Below are positions 546-8,771 of a stretch of 21,161 nt of DNA, piece after piece. The notes below the pieces were generated by a model. That model ran no database searches. It saw only the letters and a list, made by a program, of their open reading frames with translations, and was not told where the DNA came from. This DNA comes from Candidatus Hodarchaeota archaeon (GTDB lineage: Archaea > Asgardarchaeota > Heimdallarchaeia > Hodarchaeales > Hodarchaeaceae): positions 1-21,161 of the forward strand of contig JAEOTQ010000224.1 in assembly GCA_016839785.1 (NCBI GenBank), read 5' to 3'. The translations under genes were made by a program, and so were the position numbers. The number at the start of each line of letters is the position of its first letter. Positions within the stretch are counted from its first letter, which is position 1.

Positions 546-1922
546 TTAGTATATCCATTTCTTTCTCTTTTTCACCTTGTAAAAGATCATTATTCCTAAT
601 CCGACCAGCACGAATGGTAAATTCAAGAATGATGCTTTTGATTCAGTTGTGGTTGACTCTGAAATAGGATTGACTAAAGATTTCAGAATAAATGATTCAA
701 TAAGTTTTAATGGGCTGTATGTCGGGGTGGGGAAGGAATGGTAATTGCTCGAAGTCGTTACAACAACTAGGCTTGCACTAGGTTTGACCATTATGTGTTG
801 TCCTCCGAGTCCCCAAGCAAGAATATAATTCAATTCGTCTTCAATCCACCATTGGTATCCGTAACCCAAAGTGTTACTGTGATCTTGGAATGATTCCTCG
901 ATCCATGCTTCTGGGACAATTTGAGTAGAATTCCAAAGTCCATTATTCAAACAAAGGTATCCAATCTTTACCATGTCTAAAGGGCGTAACCATAAACCAG
1001 TTCCTCCCATTGTTATTCCCAAGGGAGACTTCCACCATACATATTCAGTTATATTTAAGGGTCCAAATAGATATTGTAGTGCAAACTCTTCGGAAGTCAT
1101 TCCTGTCTTATTCTGGATAATGGCAGAGAGAAGAAGGGAATCACCATTACTGTAAAGAAAATTTGTCCCAGGAGTATGTTCCATTGGCTTATCCAGGACA
1201 AATTGAACGTAATCAAGACTAAGGTACATTTGAACCCAATCATTCTCATGATTATATGGCCAGCTTAGAGGCCAGTTCGAAATATCCGCAGTATGATTCG
1301 TAAAGAGGTCATAATCAAAGATATCAATAGTGTCGTTATAATGGGCAAGACTGCCTTGATTCCATTGAATCCCACTTTGCATTTTCAACAGATGACGAAT
1401 TGTTATTGCTTGCTTCTTAGCATCTACATTTGAAAAAGTTCGGTTGGCAAAAATTTCTAGTACTGGTTGATCTAGATTTGGAATAAAACCTGTGGCCTTA
1501 GCAATTCCGATCAATAACCCAATCACAGATTTTGTGACACTAAACATCTGATGAATGTTTGAAAAGTTATAATAGTTGAAGTATTCCTCATAGACTAAAT
1601 AACCATTCCTAATAATTGTCATACTGTCGATTCCTAGCTCTTGTTCAATGATCAAGTCATACATACTGTTAAGCTTTGTTGAATTCATTCCCTGATCTTC
1701 AGGGGTGGATTGACGCCAACCATTGGTTGGAAAATACGGTGTTTCAGCCTTTAAAGAACTTTGTACCATTCCCCCAGAGAAAGTTATGGAAAATATTAGT
1801 AAAATCATACCGTTAGTCAAAAATTTCAGTTTTTTTGTCGTTATTATCCCATCCTTGATAATTATGAAATCGAAACCTCGAACTCCTATGAAATGGTTAA
1901 AGACAGATATAAAATTATGCAT
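546..1922 (-). CDS. Secreted, membrane-anchored serine hydrolase, beta-lactamase class C / 6-aminohexanoate-dimer hydrolase-like family
   Basis: SxxK (FSVTKS), LLKMQSG, PGTNFLYSN (YxN), LRPLDMVKIG, GYGYQWW and AWGLGGQ motifs. Hydrophobic signal-like N-terminal segment. Ser/Thr linker, transmembrane helix and KVKKRKK at the C-terminus. The true start is probably downstream of 1922 (about 1847-1808). Confidence 0.88.
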   Translation of the reverse strand: MHNFISVFNHFIGVRGFDFIIIKDGIITTKKLKFLTNGMILLIFSITFSGGMVQSSLKAETPYFPTNGWRQSTPEDQGMNSTKLNSMYDLIIEQELGIDSMTIIRNGYLVYEEYFNYYNFSNIHQMFSVTKSVIGLLIGIAKATGFIPNLDQPVLEIFANRTFSNVDAKKQAITIRHLLKMQSGIQWNQGSLAHYNDTIDIFDYDLFTNHTADISNWPLSWPYNHENDWVQMYLSLDYVQFVLDKPMEHTPGTNFLYSNGDSLLLSAIIQNKTGMTSEEFALQYLFGPLNITEYVWWKSPLGITMGGTGLWLRPLDMVKIGYLCLNNGLWNSTQIVPEAWIEESFQDHSNTLGYGYQWWIEDELNYILAWGLGGQHIMVKPSASLVVVTTSSNYHSFPTPTYSPLKLIESFILKSLVNPISESTTTESKASFLNLPFVLVGLGIMIFYKVKKRKKWIY

Positions 1923-2705: not shown

Positions 2706-3692
2706 GTGAAGTATATGATAAAACGAGAAGATAAATACCGAAGAAAAATCTTTTCAGGAACTTTAATCCTCTTTTTAGTGGGTTTCGGGTTAACTAACGC
2801 CCAAATAATAAAACCAGACTCATTAATTCCAAATTTTAAATTAAAAATGCAAAGTTATGTTGTCCATGATCCCATTAATATTAACCATGATAATGAACTA
2901 GCTGTTATAGCAAGTAGCGGAACTGGTACAGTCGATGATCCTTTTATTATTGCTGGTTGGAACATCAGTAACGCTCAAGAGTATGGGATCGTCATTTCGG
3001 GGACGACAAAGCATTTTATAGTAGAGAATTGTTGGATTAATAGCTCAAAAAATCATAGGATTTTTGTGGATGATGTAACTACAGGAACGAGTACAATTAT
3101 CAATAACACCTGCACTAACAATGATAAGTCTGGTATCCGCTTTTGGGCTTCTAGTTCTTCCACTCTAGCCAACAACACTTGTACCGGCAACGGAGAAAAT
3201 GGTATATCTATTGGGGGTTCTGGTGATTCAACTATAGCTAATAACACTTGCACTAACAATGTTACAGTTGGTATTTCCATGGGAATGGCTCTTGGGCCTT
3301 CTGAATATAATTTTCTTGTTTGGAATAGGCTGGTTGGGAATGGAGATTACGGGCTTTATTCATCCATGGGTTCGGACAATAATTCCATTCACCACAATTC
3401 TTTTATCGCGAATGGGAAGCATAACTCGCAAGCGTATGATGATGGTTTGAACAATCAATGGTATGATGAAATAGTACTGGAGGGGAATTACTGGTCAGAT
3501 TACTCTGGTAATGGTAATTATGTTATTGAGGGTTCAGCTGGAGCAAGTGATCCCTTTCCCATGCTTGCTCCCTCTACATATTCCAAGGAGACTGATCCTA
3601 TTGATCTCTCACTGTTAATGAGAATTGGATTATTTTTGTCGATTATTGGATTATTTACTCTGCTTTTCATCAGAAATAGAAGAAGCTTTTGA
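2706..3692 (+). CDS. Cell-surface right-handed parallel beta-helix protein (NosD/PbH1 repeats) with signal peptide and C-terminal TM anchor
   Basis: Basic plus hydrophobic N-terminus; HDPININ...SGTGTVDDPFIIAGWNI; repeats of NNTCxxN...GI; IHHNSF, GNYWSDY and DPFP motifs; terminal hydrophobic helix followed by RNRR. Start may be ATG 2715. Confidence 0.85.
   Translation: MKYMIKREDKYRRKIFSGTLILFLVGFGLTNAQIIKPDSLIPNFKLKMQSYVVHDPININHDNELAVIASSGTGTVDDPFIIAGWNISNAQEYGIVISGTTKHFIVENCWINSSKNHRIFVDDVTTGTSTIINNTCTNNDKSGIRFWASSSSTLANNTCTGNGENGISIGGSGDSTIANNTCTNNVTVGISMGMALGPSEYNFLVWNRLVGNGDYGLYSSMGSDNNSIHHNSFIANGKHNSQAYDDGLNNQWYDEIVLEGNYWSDYSGNGNYVIEGSAGASDPFPMLAPSTYSKETDPIDLSLLMRIGLFLSIIGLFTLLFIRNRRSF
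3102..3260 (+). repeat. Three intragenic repeats with a 69-bp (23-aa) period encoding beta-helix coils (NNTCTNN / NNTCTGN / NNTCTNN)
   Basis: aataacacctgcactaacaat at 3102, aacaacacttgtaccggcaac at 3171, aataacacttgcactaacaat at 3240. Confidence 0.85.
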
Positions 3693-3772: not shown

Positions 3773-5395
3773 GTGAACAATTTGGATAGTAGCGACTCCT
3801 TGAACACCATGTGTGATGTTTTAATTATTGGATCGGGAATTGCTGGATTATCGATGGCACTTAAAGTTGCTAATATCGGTAAAGTGATTGTCCTAACAAA
3901 GACGAATCTTACAGAATGTGCTACCATATTAGCTCAGGCAGGTATTAGTGCAGTCCTATCTAGTAACGATTCTTTTGATACTCATATTCGAGATACAGTA
4001 AATGTGGGAGATGGACTGTGTCATCAAGATGTCGTTGAAAAAATAGTGTCTGCTGCCCCTGAACGTATCGAAGAGCTTGTCAAATGGGGTGTTCAATTCT
4101 CTAAACAGGATAATGACCAGTATGACTTAGGATTGGAAGCTGGGCATTCCTACCGCCGAGTAGTTCATTCCAAAGACATTACAGGGGCGAATATTCAAAA
4201 AGCGCTTGTAAATCGTGTATTAGAAGATTCTCGAATCACTGTACTTGAGAATCATATTGCTATTAATCTGAAAGTAAGAGCTGGTAGATGTTTAGGTGCG
4301 TATGTATTAGATAAGAATCAGGATCGTGTCAAGAATTTCGCAGCTAAAGTCACAGTACTAGCCACAGGGGGTTTGGGGAAAGCATTCCTTTATACTAGTA
4401 ATCCTGATATTTCAAGTGGAGACGGAATTGCAATGGCATATCGTGCTGGTGCCACGGTTATGAATATGGAGTTTATTCAATTCCATCCTACCCTACTATA
4501 TCATCCACATGCCAAATCCTTTTTGATTTCAGAGGCACTAAGAGGAGAAGGAGCTAAACTCATTGATGAAACAGGTTCTCGCTTTATGCCTTCTTATGAT
4601 TCTCGATTGGAGCTAGCTCCTAGGGATGTCGTTGCTAGAGCAATAGATTCGGAGCTTAAACGTTCTGGGAATGATTGTCTATTTCTAGATATTTCTTTCA
4701 AAGACTCTGACTTTATCAAGAACCGATTTCCAGGTATTTTTACCAAATGTTTTGAGCTAGGTATTGATATTACTAAAGAGCCGATACCTATTGTACCAGC
4801 AGCTCATTATGCTATTGGGGGGGTGAAAACCTCAGTATCTGGTCAAACAGACATTCCTGGACTATTAGCGATAGGAGAAACAGCTTGTACGGGTTTTCAT
4901 GGAGCTAATCGTCTTGCTTCCAATTCATTACTTGAATCTAGTGTGATGGCCCATTATGCCGCGCAAGAATGTCGCAACCTTCTGACCAAAGGGAATCATG
5001 TCTGTTCTTTTTCCCCTTGGCACTCTGGCGATGCAGTGGACAGTGATGAATCTGTAGTAGTTTCGCAAAATTGGATGGAGCTCAGACTACTCATGTGGAA
5101 CTACGTTGGAGTTGTTAGATCCGATAAGCGTTTTCGTCGTGCTCAACAACGTATCCACCTACTACAAGATGAGATAAATCAATATTACTGGAATTTTCAT
5201 CTCACCTCAGATTTGATTGAACTACGAAATCTAGCCGATGTCGCCCAAATGATTATCAATGCGGGTTTTCATCGTAAAGAAAGTCGTGGTGTCCATTATA
5301 CTATTGATTATCCGACGAAACGAAAAACTTCTAAGGATACATTACTCCGAAAATCTGTTAGAAGTGAAATTTTCAATTCTTCTAAATGTGACTGA
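3773..5395 (+). CDS. nadB: L-aspartate oxidase
   Basis: DVLIIGSGIAG (FAD binding), AQAGISAV, EAGHSYRRVVH, MEFIQFHPT, LISEALRGEGA, ELAPRDVVAR, PAAHY, HGANRLASNSLLE and RKESRGVHY. Start is GTG 3773 or ATG 3809. Confidence 0.95.
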   Translation: MNNLDSSDSLNTMCDVLIIGSGIAGLSMALKVANIGKVIVLTKTNLTECATILAQAGISAVLSSNDSFDTHIRDTVNVGDGLCHQDVVEKIVSAAPERIEELVKWGVQFSKQDNDQYDLGLEAGHSYRRVVHSKDITGANIQKALVNRVLEDSRITVLENHIAINLKVRAGRCLGAYVLDKNQDRVKNFAAKVTVLATGGLGKAFLYTSNPDISSGDGIAMAYRAGATVMNMEFIQFHPTLLYHPHAKSFLISEALRGEGAKLIDETGSRFMPSYDSRLELAPRDVVARAIDSELKRSGNDCLFLDISFKDSDFIKNRFPGIFTKCFELGIDITKEPIPIVPAAHYAIGGVKTSVSGQTDIPGLLAIGETACTGFHGANRLASNSLLESSVMAHYAAQECRNLLTKGNHVCSFSPWHSGDAVDSDESVVVSQNWMELRLLMWNYVGVVRSDKRFRRAQQRIHLLQDEINQYYWNFHLTSDLIELRNLADVAQMIINAGFHRKESRGVHYTIDYPTKRKTSKDTLLRKSVRSEIFNSSKCD

Positions 5396-5601
5396 AGCTT
5401 AAGCATGAATGGAAATGTATCTGGTTTGATTGCTTTCTTCTGAAGTAACCAAATCTTAGCTCCTAAAGAATTAAAAAACCTCAACAGAGGACTAGAATGT
5501 GTAGATCACTTCAACGAGAGACATTTTTATTTACATACAAATTTCTCCTTGTTCTTCAACCTCTTCTACAGCAATATCTTAACAAAAGGATAGAACTTAT
5601 A

Positions 5602-5769
5602 ATGTCAATGGAAGAATTACTAACTCTAGAAAATTATCCAGACCTATCTAAACCATGGAATAGCCCTTGCTTGATTTGTGATCATTTAGAACGATGTGGA
5701 GTCGGCCAAGAATTTAATCCCATTGGTTGTCCTTGGTTGAATAATTACATTACTTTACTGCTAGACTAA
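5602..5769 (+). CDS. Small (~55 aa) protein consisting of a TFE-beta/RPC34(RPC39)-type four-Cys Fe-S domain
   Basis: MSMEELL...SPCLICDHLERCGVGQEFNPIGCPWLNNYI has the pattern P-C-x2-C-x5-C-x10-C. AAGGA lies upstream of ATG 5602. The ORF-track extension to 5497 looks non-coding. Confidence 0.7.
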   Translation: MSMEELLTLENYPDLSKPWNSPCLICDHLERCGVGQEFNPIGCPWLNNYITLLLD

Positions 5770-5994: not shown

Positions 5995-6834
5995 TTAATA
6001 TTCAGCTAATGTACCACTTCTTTTAGCGGTTGTTACTGTCCTTCGAAAGAACATTATACCCAATAATGGAAAAACAATCGCAAAGAAGGTAACAATACCA
6101 AATTCTAGTTCATATGATAGAAGTTCAGGAGGAATTCCAATCAAAGTCGACCGAAAAAGATCAACACAGTACGAAAGGGGGATTAGACGTGATACAATTA
6201 AGACAATATCTGGCAAAGCGGAGAAAGGAAAGAACATTGCACACACAATCATAAAGAAAAATTGTAAGAAATTTGTTAAGGTATTCATAGATTCTTTATA
6301 TTGTAAGGCCAGTCCTGCAAACCCGAAGGAAAACCCAAAACAGACAAAGAGACTAAGTACTAGAATAATCATTCCGAGAAACACATTCTGAACTGGTAAT
6401 TTTCCAAATACAATTGACATGAAGATAAAAGCAATAGCTACGTTTAGACTTGTCCAAATCACATTTGAAAGGATACGTGATACTAAAGTAGAGAAATAAC
6501 TGATAGGAGACATGAAGAGTGACTCCAATGTGCCTTGATACTGCTCTTCACGTAAAGAGTTTCCAATATCCCAGAGGGCTGTTGAAAAGAACATGAAGAG
6601 AATGAAAGAATAAAACATAATTCCTACTCCAAAGCTTTCCTGGTCAGGTGGAGCTAATACCATAGCAGCTACTGTGAAAACAAACATGATTACCATGATT
6701 TGAACGAAACTGAGGACAAACGAGAATTTATAACGAGTAAGGACAGTAAATTCTTTCTTTGTCATAGCCCAAAATTGACTCCACCATGCTTTCCTTCCAT
6801 GTATCCGATTTTGTTCAGCTGTAGCTAATACCAT
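5995..6834 (-). CDS. ABC-2 type exporter permease
   Basis: About six TM segments; LREEQYQGTLESLFMSP, FFPFSALP and IPLSYCVDLFR motifs; third gene of the ABC operon. Confidence 0.9.
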   Translation of the reverse strand: MVLATAEQNRIHGRKAWWSQFWAMTKKEFTVLTRYKFSFVLSFVQIMVIMFVFTVAAMVLAPPDQESFGVGIMFYSFILFMFFSTALWDIGNSLREEQYQGTLESLFMSPISYFSTLVSRILSNVIWTSLNVAIAFIFMSIVFGKLPVQNVFLGMIILVLSLFVCFGFSFGFAGLALQYKESMNTLTNFLQFFFMIVCAMFFPFSALPDIVLIVSRLIPLSYCVDLFRSTLIGIPPELLSYELEFGIVTFFAIVFPLLGIMFFRRTVTTAKRSGTLAEY

Positions 6835-6846
6835 AATGCTTCTTTC

Positions 6847-7713
6847 CTAAAATTGTCCTATTCCTTCAGCTCTTTTACTTCGTGACTCTGTTCTTGAGAA
6901 GATTAGATAACCTATCAAAGGACAGGTTATTGCGAAAATAAATAAAATGCCTAGATGTCCATACATATTCACAAAAAACCAATCTAATCCCATTAATGCC
7001 GCCTGGATGTTATAGTTAAGCCAAAAACCTGGAAAAAGGTAAGAAACAATTTGAAAAGTAATTGGTAACACAGTTATTGGAAAGAACACTCCCATAAATG
7101 CTCCTACAATCCATTGTAGTGTATTAAGTAAGCTATTAGCTTGTTTGACCTTTAGAACCAATGCTCCTAAGAGAAAAGATAACCCATAGATCGGAACCAA
7201 CCCAAACAGAAGAATGGCCAATGCTAATAGTACTTGTCCCTGAAATGGATTGATCGAAAATAGAAGACACCCGAATAAATATCCCCCCAGAAATGTAATA
7301 ACCGATCGTAATTGCACATAAAGAGTTAGGCCGACAAGAATTGAAATTTGGTGGGCTGGAGACATGAATAAGGCCTCTAGAGTACCAAGAGTTTGCTCTC
7401 GTCTAATAAAGAACCCGAATAACCATAACGAAGTCGTTACTGTAGAGAATACATTTGCTCCAATAATAATAAAGGCCACATAGTTGGCGCCTGTTAAACC
7501 TGTATTCTGTTCGAAATTAGCGGATGCAGCTGAAATTGAACCAGATAATGCTTGTCCTAAAAGAATTGGCATAGCGGCTAACAGTACAGGGGTCAATATA
7601 TCCATAAATAACACGCCTTTATAACGGGAAAAAGTCTTTAATCGTACTACAAATGTTCCCCACACCACTCCCCAATGACTTTTGAGTGTCATCTTCTGAA
7701 TTGGAGCATACAT
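6847..7713 (-). CDS. ABC-2 type exporter permease
   Basis: About six TM segments; IRREQTLGTLEALFMSP and GVFFPITVLP motifs; 2-bp gap from the ATPase gene. Confidence 0.9.
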   Translation of the reverse strand: MYAPIQKMTLKSHWGVVWGTFVVRLKTFSRYKGVLFMDILTPVLLAAMPILLGQALSGSISAASANFEQNTGLTGANYVAFIIIGANVFSTVTTSLWLFGFFIRREQTLGTLEALFMSPAHQISILVGLTLYVQLRSVITFLGGYLFGCLLFSINPFQGQVLLALAILLFGLVPIYGLSFLLGALVLKVKQANSLLNTLQWIVGAFMGVFFPITVLPITFQIVSYLFPGFWLNYNIQAALMGLDWFFVNMYGHLGILFIFAITCPLIGYLIFSRTESRSKRAEGIGQF

Positions 7714-7715
7714 TA

Positions 7716-8771
7716 CTAATCGCTTCCAGTTTTTGTTTTAATTACCTGACTTGTATCATCCATTAATGAGCGACCTGTAATATTAACAAAAACATCCTCA
7801 AGGGTCGTTTCCTTCTTGTCAATATTGCGAATGATTGCACCATTTGTCGTTAATGTGGATATAATCTCTGGTAAATTCTGATGACTATTTTCACAGGTAA
7901 TATTCAAGTAGGGTCTTTTCTCAGTAGATCCATTATTCATCTGTTTGACAAGAATTTGAGTAGACATGACTCCTGGCGTTAATTTCAGTGCAGTTTGAGC
8001 TTTTTCAGGTATTGTTCCCTCAACGCTTAGAATATCGTTTTTCTGTAACCCTTGCTTGAGATCCATTGGATCATCGAGAGCAATAATCTCACCATGGTCA
8101 ATTATTCCAACTCGTTGACACAATTCTTCAGCTTCATGCATCAGATGAGTACAGTATATAATCGTCTTATTATAATCTTCATTTTGCTCTTTCACAATTT
8201 TTCGTAGCCGACGAGCCTCTTTCACGTCCAGAGTGTTCGTAGGTTCATCAAGCATGAGTATTGGAGCATCATTTACAAGAGAACGAGCGAAAACCATCTT
8301 CATTTTTTGACCAGAAGAGTAAGTCTCAACTGTTCTATCAGCAATTTTGTCTAGTTCTAATAGTTCTATTAATGATTTTATTCGGTCTTTTCTGATGGAT
8401 TTAGGGACGTGATAAAGGGCCCCAAAATATTCTAAATTCTCTCTCCCAGTAAGTTTCCAGTATAATCCTCGTTCCCCCATGAGCATTGCCCCAATAGATG
8501 ACTTAATTTCTTTATCCTGATCTAAAGTGTAACCATTAACCTTAGCAATGCCTGAAGTAGGAAGGAGTAACGTTGTCAGAATTTTAATCAAAGTGGTTTT
8601 TCCCGCTCCGTTTGGTCCGAGTAATCCAAAAATTTCTCCCTGATCTACATCAAAAGTTACTCCCTTTAACGCCTTTACGACATTTTTTTCACTCTTGAAT
8701 ATACCTAGACGTTTTTTTGAAGAATAATGCTTTGATAAATCTTTTACTTCAATCATCTTACTTGTGGGCAT
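7716..8771 (-). CDS. ABC exporter ATP-binding protein (DrrA/NodI-like, with C-terminal extension)
   Basis: Walker A GPNGAGKTT, signature YSSGQ, Walker B ILMLDEPT, H-loop CTH, and C-terminal TLEDVFVNITGR. Confidence 0.95.
   Translation of the reverse strand: MPTSKMIEVKDLSKHYSSKKRLGIFKSEKNVVKALKGVTFDVDQGEIFGLLGPNGAGKTTLIKILTTLLLPTSGIAKVNGYTLDQDKEIKSSIGAMLMGERGLYWKLTGRENLEYFGALYHVPKSIRKDRIKSLIELLELDKIADRTVETYSSGQKMKMVFARSLVNDAPILMLDEPTNTLDVKEARRLRKIVKEQNEDYNKTIIYCTHLMHEAEELCQRVGIIDHGEIIALDDPMDLKQGLQKNDILSVEGTIPEKAQTALKLTPGVMSTQILVKQMNNGSTEKRPYLNITCENSHQNLPEIISTLTTNGAIIRNIDKKETTLEDVFVNITGRSLMDDTSQVIKTKTGSD

Follow-up and report, generated by a model that had tools for sequence, protein, structure and literature searches.

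The window analysed here is a stretch of 21,161 nucleotides from Candidatus Hodarchaeota archaeon (contig JAEOTQ010000224.1, positions 1 to 21,161), which carries at positions 5602–5769 an open reading frame (ORF) of 55 amino acids (aa). We consider it probable, at roughly 70%, that this microprotein is a natural, minimal form of TFE-beta, the beta subunit of archaeal transcription factor E (TFE), that lacks the winged helix and is the only TFE-beta homolog of its lineage. Five elements of this reading are directly supported: the homology to the iron-sulfur (Fe-S) domain of TFE-beta and of the RNA polymerase III (Pol III) subunit RPC34, the conservation of the gene, its single copy, the absence of the winged helix and the presence of TFE-alpha. 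A first-pass annotation, made from the letters of this DNA, had described a stand-alone Fe-S module of the TFE-beta/RPC34 type without a winged helix, and this description is borne out by profile similarity, by the occurrence of a separate short gene and by frames of 56–107 aa across the order Hodarchaeales. In the literature searched (few subscription journals, no supplements, some sources available in part), we found no description of a natural TFE-beta devoid of winged helix; relative to that literature the form is new, the TFE-beta family itself being known.

The short gene and its conservation

The ORF extends on the forward strand from an ATG at 5602 to a TAA at 5767–5769, and its coordinates and peptide were confirmed as first annotated. 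The product, of which SPCLICDHLERCGVGQEFNPIGCPWLNNYI is a part, contains four cysteines (C23, C26, C32 and C43) arranged as C-x2-C-x5-C-x10-C, with a proline, P22, just before the first one. The short hydrophobic helix that had been placed after this motif is found at residues 44–54 of the AlphaFold2 monomer model (mean predicted local distance difference test score, pLDDT, of 69). Between the end of nadB and position 5602, a gap of 206 bp, no winged-helix coding sequence was found, as the initial estimate of ~200 bp without an upstream winged helix had it.

The start of the gene is similar in the 10 orthologous loci that we compared: the initiation codon is ATG in five and TTG in five, the protein begins with M/L-S-M-E-E-L-L, and AGGA or GAGG is present 7–12 nt 5′ of the start. 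A stop codon lies at most 12 codons 5′ of the start in four of these ten loci. Homologs are 53–60 aa long, apart from three of 83–90 aa that resemble longer gene calls. A 90-aa reading of the window ORF, from an in-frame ATG at 5497, was considered and rejected, its extension not being conserved across homologs. Upstream of the gene, GAGAGACATTTTTATTTACATA, a candidate promoter block resembling a B recognition element (BRE) and TATA box, is kept in register in the four closest orthologous loci (L001–L004), although the synonymous sites of the coding sequence (CDS) differ by 54–76% among them.

We then assessed conservation of the protein. With the microprotein as single query, 17 of the 21 other genomes of the genus matched at E ≤6e-23, with no internal stops. 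Over 48 aligned codons from 10 orthologs, non-synonymous differences per site (pN) ranged from 0.025 to 0.21 versus 0.43–1.0 for synonymous ones (pS), and the ratio of the corresponding substitution rates (dN/dS) was 0.02–0.19 in the 19 of 45 ortholog pairs with unsaturated dS. P22 and the cysteines do not vary in 28 short homologs, and their conservation over 108 profile sequences is 90% or more. Given the contrast between pN and pS and the invariance of P22 and the cysteines, the motif is more than a chance occurrence and, from these alignments, the 55-aa ORF is a protein-coding gene under strong purifying selection. Its conservation as a separate gene holds in the genus and, with 20 of 24 genomes, in the order (see below). 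As anticipated in the first pass, all named records of the gene are labelled ‘hypothetical protein’; Pfam misses the protein. The names that close homologs bear at NCBI point to Hodarchaeales as the order of the organism.

These data bear on whether the ORF is functional at all. A decaying 3′ remnant of a former full-length TFE-beta gene would also be short, without Pfam match and missing from some genomes of the genus, here 4 of 21, but it is hard to reconcile with such dN/dS ratios at synonymous sites near saturation, with a conserved start and Shine–Dalgarno-like motif, with the invariance of P22 and the cysteines over 28 homologs, and with the lack of internal stops in 17 genus matches. 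Nor does the ORF behave as a broken piece of a longer gene, the frames being short in 20 of the 20 order genomes with a match and closed upstream in the four loci mentioned above. We thus regard a non-functional remnant as extremely improbable.

Family assignment, copy number and the missing winged helix

Family assignment relied on two profiles, A1, composed of 12 short forms and three long relatives from the same class, and A3, composed of 28 sequences, all short forms. Searched against 1.84 billion representatives, A1 retrieved 107 proteins at E ≤1e-3, many of them 117–160 or 225–361 aa long with the matching part at their C-terminus. Out of the 108 sequences scanned (these 107 and the window protein), 54 matched PF05158 (RNA_pol_Rpc34) at E ≤0.01, with a best value of 1.1e-63. 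An hhalign comparison of A3 with eight Pfam-verified RPC34 proteins, taken from the matches of a family-containing profile, aligned 41 columns to the RPC34 C-terminus with a probability of 98.2% (E 5.7e-14). Conservation with RPC34 goes beyond the cysteines and includes P22, G35, P40 and the C-terminal helix, which aligns in hhalign with the C-terminal ‘Y..WL’ helix of RPC34. Upstream of the motif, W19 is invariant in the A1 alignment and matches the Trp preceding the motif in long sister-family proteins. In the second family of the same order, two short proteins match the C-terminal end of PF05158 itself (model positions 271–332 and 298–332; E 4.8e-5 and 1.7e-3), with 23.4 and 18.3 bits, both below the gathering threshold of 28.4 bits. 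Note that this model has 332 positions, of which the cysteine domain makes up only the last ~35–60.

The spacing of the motif, initially equated with that of archaeal TFE-beta, is the same as that of C92/C95/C101/C112 in Saccharolobus solfataricus (Sso) TFE-beta, and the human RPC39 stretch quoted alongside it agrees with the chain sequence in the PDB. Overall, the profile comparisons indicate that the 55-aa protein and the TFE-beta/RPC34 Fe-S domain are homologous. Its invariant ligand cysteines point to a putative Fe-S cluster.

We next considered copy number. With A1, exactly one match was obtained in 20 of the 24 genomes of the order, in stop-to-stop frames that were always 56–107 aa long, and none of the 24 yielded a full-length TFE-beta. 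With a profile of the domain, five genomes of the genus, including a single-contig one (96% complete) and another of 99% completeness, each gave one significant Fe-S-domain match, in frames of 61–100 aa. The genome to which the window belongs (84.5% complete) also yielded no full-length TFE-beta: PF05158 found nothing, a 138-aa sister-family protein used as query matched only the 55-aa ORF, and a full-length hidden Markov model (HMM) had this ORF as best match (9e-11), its weaker matches being proteins also found by an HMM of the winged helix only. Across the phylum, of the 151 genomes that are 80% complete or better, 139 gave a match, nearly always in one copy, and outside this family the frames are mostly 112–228 aa long.

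The longer frames correspond to a two-domain protein. In the model of the 138-aa sister-family protein, residues 3–69 form a winged helix of H-beta-H-H-beta-beta topology (pLDDT 82–92), followed by a disordered linker and then by the cysteine domain; its best Foldseek match is human Pol III chain P (E 1.9e-3, probability 0.94), ahead of MarR-type winged helices. Sister families, we conclude, still have the ancestral form with both domains, and in this order the C-terminal one alone is present. The long form being retained in most of the Asgard genomes searched, the shortening appears to be derived and specific to this lineage, and for the same reason it says little on the origin of RPC34/RPC82; the first-pass suggestion that the ORF bears on how the Pol III C82/C34 subcomplex arose is not supported.

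Three sub-readings had been proposed for the module, a minimal TFE-beta, a decoy or one half of a split TFE-beta, and the first is the one supported. As a decoy, the microprotein would compete with full-length TFE-beta for TFE-alpha and tune basal transcription. A long and a short gene do occur in tandem in same-class genome G113 but, because no full-length TFE-beta was found for the microprotein to compete with, either in the 24 order genomes or in its own genome (PF05158 and long-homolog query), we judge this role very unlikely here. The G113 locus (L037, G113:C138:7300-9700) contains a full-length gene and a short, Fe-S-only gene, both on the forward strand, and this pair may represent a genuine decoy arrangement or an intermediate toward the short-only state.

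In a split TFE-beta, the winged helix would be made as a separate polypeptide elsewhere and join TFE-alpha and the microprotein in trans. The winged helices of TFE-beta, RPC39 and TFIIE-beta are poorly conserved, according to the Sso study (PMC4495717), and such a half could escape searches. We ran an HMM made from the N-terminal halves of long relatives on the 31,645 frames of at least 40 aa from the window's own genome, and it matched several winged-helix proteins, the best (E 5.7e-11) being a 364-aa tandem-winged-helix protein on contig C134. Two N-terminal winged helices are followed in that protein by B12-binding_2 and B12-binding domains, and its TFA2_Winged_2 and TFIIE_beta matches are weak; we rejected it as the missing half, its B12-binding domains pointing to a cobalamin-dependent regulator. 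The other matches presumably are generic regulators which, judged by look, resemble the Lrp/AsnC, MarR and TrmB types. PF02186 and PF18121 found nothing above their cut-offs in this genome. Two sister-family loci have the long gene immediately upstream of an rlmE-like gene; in this genus we found no winged-helix-only gene in that slot, where the gene, recognised by eye, is presumably SRP19, nor any adjoining the microprotein gene. A split TFE-beta is unsupported by these searches, and we hold it to be improbable. As a separate observation, the architecture of the C134 protein is that of a cobalamin-dependent regulator in which winged helices replace the MerR-type DNA-binding domain.

Short forms were also encountered outside the order. 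Another Asgard family has Fe-S-only forms of ~75–81 aa in both of the two genomes examined. In a further family, one genome (L032, G045:C2, 781-1026, forward strand) has a frame of 82 aa in which just the final portion of the winged helix is left; a congener (L038, G055:C5, 827-1189, reverse strand) encodes a 121-aa two-domain protein, congeners spanning 121–128 aa, and the 82-aa frame may be a frameshift or a recent truncation. Matches of 56–93 aa in the representative library bear submitter labels such as Hodarchaeales, Odinarchaeota, Hermodarchaeota and Promethearchaeota (labels unverified). Core identities are 17/36 for the nearest out-of-genus short forms and 16/36 for the nearest long form, values too close to tell one origin of the short forms from repeated truncation.

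The putative TFE-alpha partner and the nadB neighborhood

A single clear TFE-alpha gene was found in the genome; its 210-aa product combines a winged helix, a zinc ribbon and a C-terminal helix, and has 107 homologs, many of them named TFIIE alpha. Its best NCBIfam match is ‘transcription initiation factor E subunit alpha’, below the equivalog cut-off of that model. The cognate TFE-alpha is thus present, and we predicted the complex of TFE-alpha and the microprotein with a riding 4Fe-4S cluster, using unpaired alignments of 42 and 28 rows. Scores were 0.73, 0.83 and 0.85 in three runs (median 0.83), whereas none of three controls exceeded 0.00; 58 of 80 solved complexes and 2 of 110 mismatched pairs reach the mark applied to this score. 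Between runs, 96% or more of the contacts are shared, and the pLDDT of the partners is at least 81. The predicted interface comprises residues 13–21, 118–132, 144–146 and 174–189 of TFE-alpha, i.e. the edge of the winged helix, the following helix and the C-terminal tail, and residues 13–54 of the microprotein, including linker residues 13–21 as well as residues 46–54, which are placed against the TFE-alpha C-terminal tail. The model supports TFE-alpha binding, short of demonstrating it, and its predicted interface is in line with the published mapping of the minimal complex (PMC4495717).

Inside its winged helix, at residues ~47–66, TFE-alpha has an acidic insertion of ~18 residues (NEGLDQNETETPEEDNIV-like). 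The insertion is present in the consensus of Hodarchaeales-type TFE-alpha homologs, absent from the TFE-alpha of five sister-family genomes with long TFE-beta, and located outside the predicted microprotein interface. That it coincides with the loss of the winged helix of beta is a correlation drawn from one lineage only.

The conserved upstream neighbor of the microprotein gene, nadB, encodes a true L-aspartate oxidase (NF006567 730.9 bits for a cut-off of 629; TIGR00551 591 for a cut-off of 452.75). It lies upstream on the same strand in all seven genus loci with enough flank (8 examined). Outside the genus, nadB linkage was not seen in the loci examined; in one same-order locus, glmS is downstream of the short gene. 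Downstream of the microprotein gene, the neighbor varies within the genus, being either ABC-2 permease genes or a different gene.

This linkage bears on a further explanation, in which a four-cysteine module of TFE-beta descent has been repurposed, e.g. as an Fe-S or Zn redox partner of NadB or of NAD synthesis. Such a module would account for the constant upstream nadB next to a variable downstream neighbor, the loss of a DNA-facing domain would fit a changed role, and the monomer fold and Pfam evidence for the family is weak. Yet among the loci examined the linkage was seen in the genus only, the long genes of sister families precede rlmE, and nadB stands alone in one genus genome, G020; moreover, the genomes with the microprotein retain TFE-alpha and have no other TFE-beta-like gene, its conservation with RPC34 exceeds the cysteines (P22, G35, P40 and the C-terminal helix), and the predicted complex with TFE-alpha scores 0.83 when controls score 0.00. 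A repurposed module therefore appears to us unlikely.

Several points weigh against assigning the microprotein to TFE-beta as its minimal form. The window protein has no Pfam match even at E 10, and none in NCBIfam. The similarity to the RPC34 C-terminal domain, although recovered by profiles, was not recovered by Foldseek of the microprotein monomer, which returned only two matches, both to human Pol III chain P, at non-significant E-values of 4.2 and 6.1 and from a weak model (pLDDT 69). Human RPC6/RPC39 is the top PDB match of both profiles, at residues 285–315 of 316 for A1 (E 0.0039) and 284–315 of 316 for A3 (E 0.01), with the four cysteines aligned, but these E-values are marginal and, because the next matches are cysteine-rich LIM domains (E ~0.1), they partly reflect cysteine composition. 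The hhalign probability is subject to a selection bias, through the origin of its eight RPC34 proteins. The complex score of 0.83 may be a memory of solved RPC62/RPC39 complexes, and our own unpaired alignments and riding ligand fall outside the calibration of the tool. The nadB linkage has no connection to transcription. Finally, four of the 21 genus genomes (71–94% complete) yielded nothing convincing, broader profiles included: with the single-protein query, one matched at E 0.11 with two stops and three did not match. Among these four, the nadB ortholog of G014 is cut by the contig end, no nadB ortholog was found in G018, G007 is a 1.4-Mb, 71%-complete record, and the microprotein gene is missing from G020 (L043, G020:C194), whose intact nadB has a convergent gene directly after it. 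Either an assembly gap or a genuine loss may explain the four absences; in G020 the gene may be dispensable or unassembled.

Table 1. Positions of the features discussed, in the window unless another locus is given
Feature	Position	Strand	Basis
CDS of the 55-aa winged-helix-less TFE-beta homolog, stop included	5602..5769	+	ORF, orthologs, dN/dS
N-terminal 21 residues (MSMEELLT...KPWNS), linker-like, before the cluster motif, with conserved W19	5602..5664	+	
P22-C23-x2-C26-x5-C32-x10-C43, putative [4Fe-4S] ligand motif	5665..5730	+	Invariance, RPC6 alignment, Sso spacing
C-terminal amphipathic/hydrophobic helix, residues 44–55	5731..5766	+	AlphaFold2 model, RPC34 alignment
AGGA, candidate ribosome-binding site 11 nt 5′ of the ATG	5587..5590	+	
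Candidate BRE/TATA-like promoter block	5516..5537	+	
nadB (L-aspartate oxidase), conserved upstream neighbor, context only	3773..5395	+	NCBIfam NF006567, TIGR00551
TFE-alpha	L017:621-1250 (G000 contig C155)	+	PF02002, 41.9 bits
364-aa tandem-winged-helix B12 protein	G000 contig C134:2388-3479 (L040:781-1872)	-	Domain scan
Fe-S-only form, other Asgard family	L033 (G086:C104) 763-1005	+	
Fe-S-only form, other Asgard family	L034 (G079:C142) 861-1121	-	
Full-length ORF, 181 aa, winged-helix-length N-terminus and Cys motif	L037 ~618-1160	+	
Short ORF, ~87 aa, Cys motif domain only, ~140-180 nt downstream of the full-length ORF	L037 ~1339-1599	+	

Elsewhere in the window, positions 5995-8771 on the reverse strand hold an operon-like series made up of two ABC-2 type permease genes and a gene for an ATP-binding cassette (ABC) ATPase with a DrrA-like C-terminal domain, which looks like an ordinary exporter unrelated to the microprotein. 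On the forward strand, 2706-3692 encodes a 328-aa protein with NosD/right-handed beta-helix repeats, and the 222-aa ORF just upstream of it (1978-2646) matched no Pfam family.

Proposed role and comparison with known systems

The best-characterized TFE-beta is that of Sso, and the following properties are taken from its published description (PMC4495717). The domain formed by C92, C95, C101 and C112 holds a cubane Fe-S cluster, which is rapidly lost in the C92S, C95S and C112S mutants. The protein deprived of residues 1–73 still dimerises, the FeS domain being vital, and the minimal complex consists of the winged helix and tail of TFE-alpha with TFE-beta's FeS domain. Deletion of the winged helix still allows promoter opening and stimulation of transcription in vitro; charge reversals in the winged helix lower the stabilisation of the pre-initiation complex. 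TFE-beta is described, in the parts of the two sources available, as a winged helix plus a [4Fe-4S] domain and as present in Asgard archaea (PMC4495717, PMC7289017), and the only reduced natural TFE-beta mentioned there is the haloarchaeal one, in which the cysteines are lost (PMC7289017).

For the minimal TFE-beta of the window, we infer cluster binding, TFE-alpha binding and a role in initiation, which could be articulated as follows. The ORF product would be the linker and the C-terminal four-cysteine domain of a TFE-beta whose DNA-facing winged helix was lost. It would bind a [4Fe-4S] cluster through C23, C26, C32 and C43, and dock on the helix that follows the TFE-alpha winged helix and on the TFE-alpha C-terminal tail. 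Docking would make TFE-alpha, and its hold on the RNA polymerase clamp, more stable, and the stabilised TFE would promote open-complex formation and DNA melting. Because [4Fe-4S] clusters are oxygen-labile, TFE activity may vary with iron and redox conditions, a dependence already proposed for Saccharolobus.

A broader scheme, which we put forward only tentatively and regard as rather doubtful, is that TFE has been rebuilt in Hodarchaeales: beta would be a 55-aa Fe-S ‘cofactor subunit’ devoid of any DNA-contacting domain, with the sole job of locking TFE-alpha in its active, clamp-binding shape for as long as the cluster is intact, global initiation would be gated directly by iron and redox state, and the lost winged helix would maybe be offset by the TFE-alpha acidic insertion or by some partner as yet unrecognised. 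Among archaea, Hodarchaeales have been proposed as the order closest to eukaryotes. If the scheme is true, they provide a natural experiment in which the beta winged helix, retained by eukaryotic TFIIE-beta and RPC34, is dispensable in vivo.

The order appears to keep only the cluster domain, which is the very fragment that biochemists defined as the minimal TFE-alpha-binding piece, and the short form is a natural test of the need for the beta winged helix in vivo. The microprotein also offers a very small, tractable putative Fe-S subunit for redox control of basal transcription. Note that surveys based on PF05158 or on existing annotation would probably score TFE-beta as absent from these genomes.

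Compared with known systems, the microprotein is closest in its cysteine domain and spacing to Sso TFE-beta, which likewise occurs as one copy beside one TFE-alpha and needs its FeS domain for TFE-alpha dimerisation and clamp engagement (PMC4495717). The Sso protein has an N-terminal winged helix (~1–73), whereas in the window protein the motif is preceded by 21 residues only; the cluster and TFE-alpha binding were measured for the former and are predicted for the latter. Human RPC39/RPC6 (POLR3F) has the C-terminal four-cysteine domain, in which RPC39 carries a cubane [4Fe-4S] cluster, in common with the window protein, but RPC34 proteins are ~300–360 aa long, with several winged helices, and are stable subunits of Pol III, and the window protein falls below the PF05158 threshold. 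Eukaryotic TFIIE-beta (PF02186, PF18121) is likewise the partner of a TFIIE-alpha/TFE-alpha family member; it has tandem winged helices and no Fe-S domain, in contrast to the window protein, which has no winged helix. The TFE-beta of Haloferax volcanii also underwent a lineage-specific reduction and is still thought to be a general factor (PMC7289017); haloarchaea kept the winged helix and lost the cluster cysteines, the reverse of the lineage studied here. The nearest counterpart in extent is the engineered Sso TFE-beta lacking residues 1–73, of ~52 aa (an end at residue 125 being implied by the published deletion names) versus 55 aa for the microprotein. The engineered form is a laboratory truncation, whereas that of the window is natural, under selection and the only copy found in the order.

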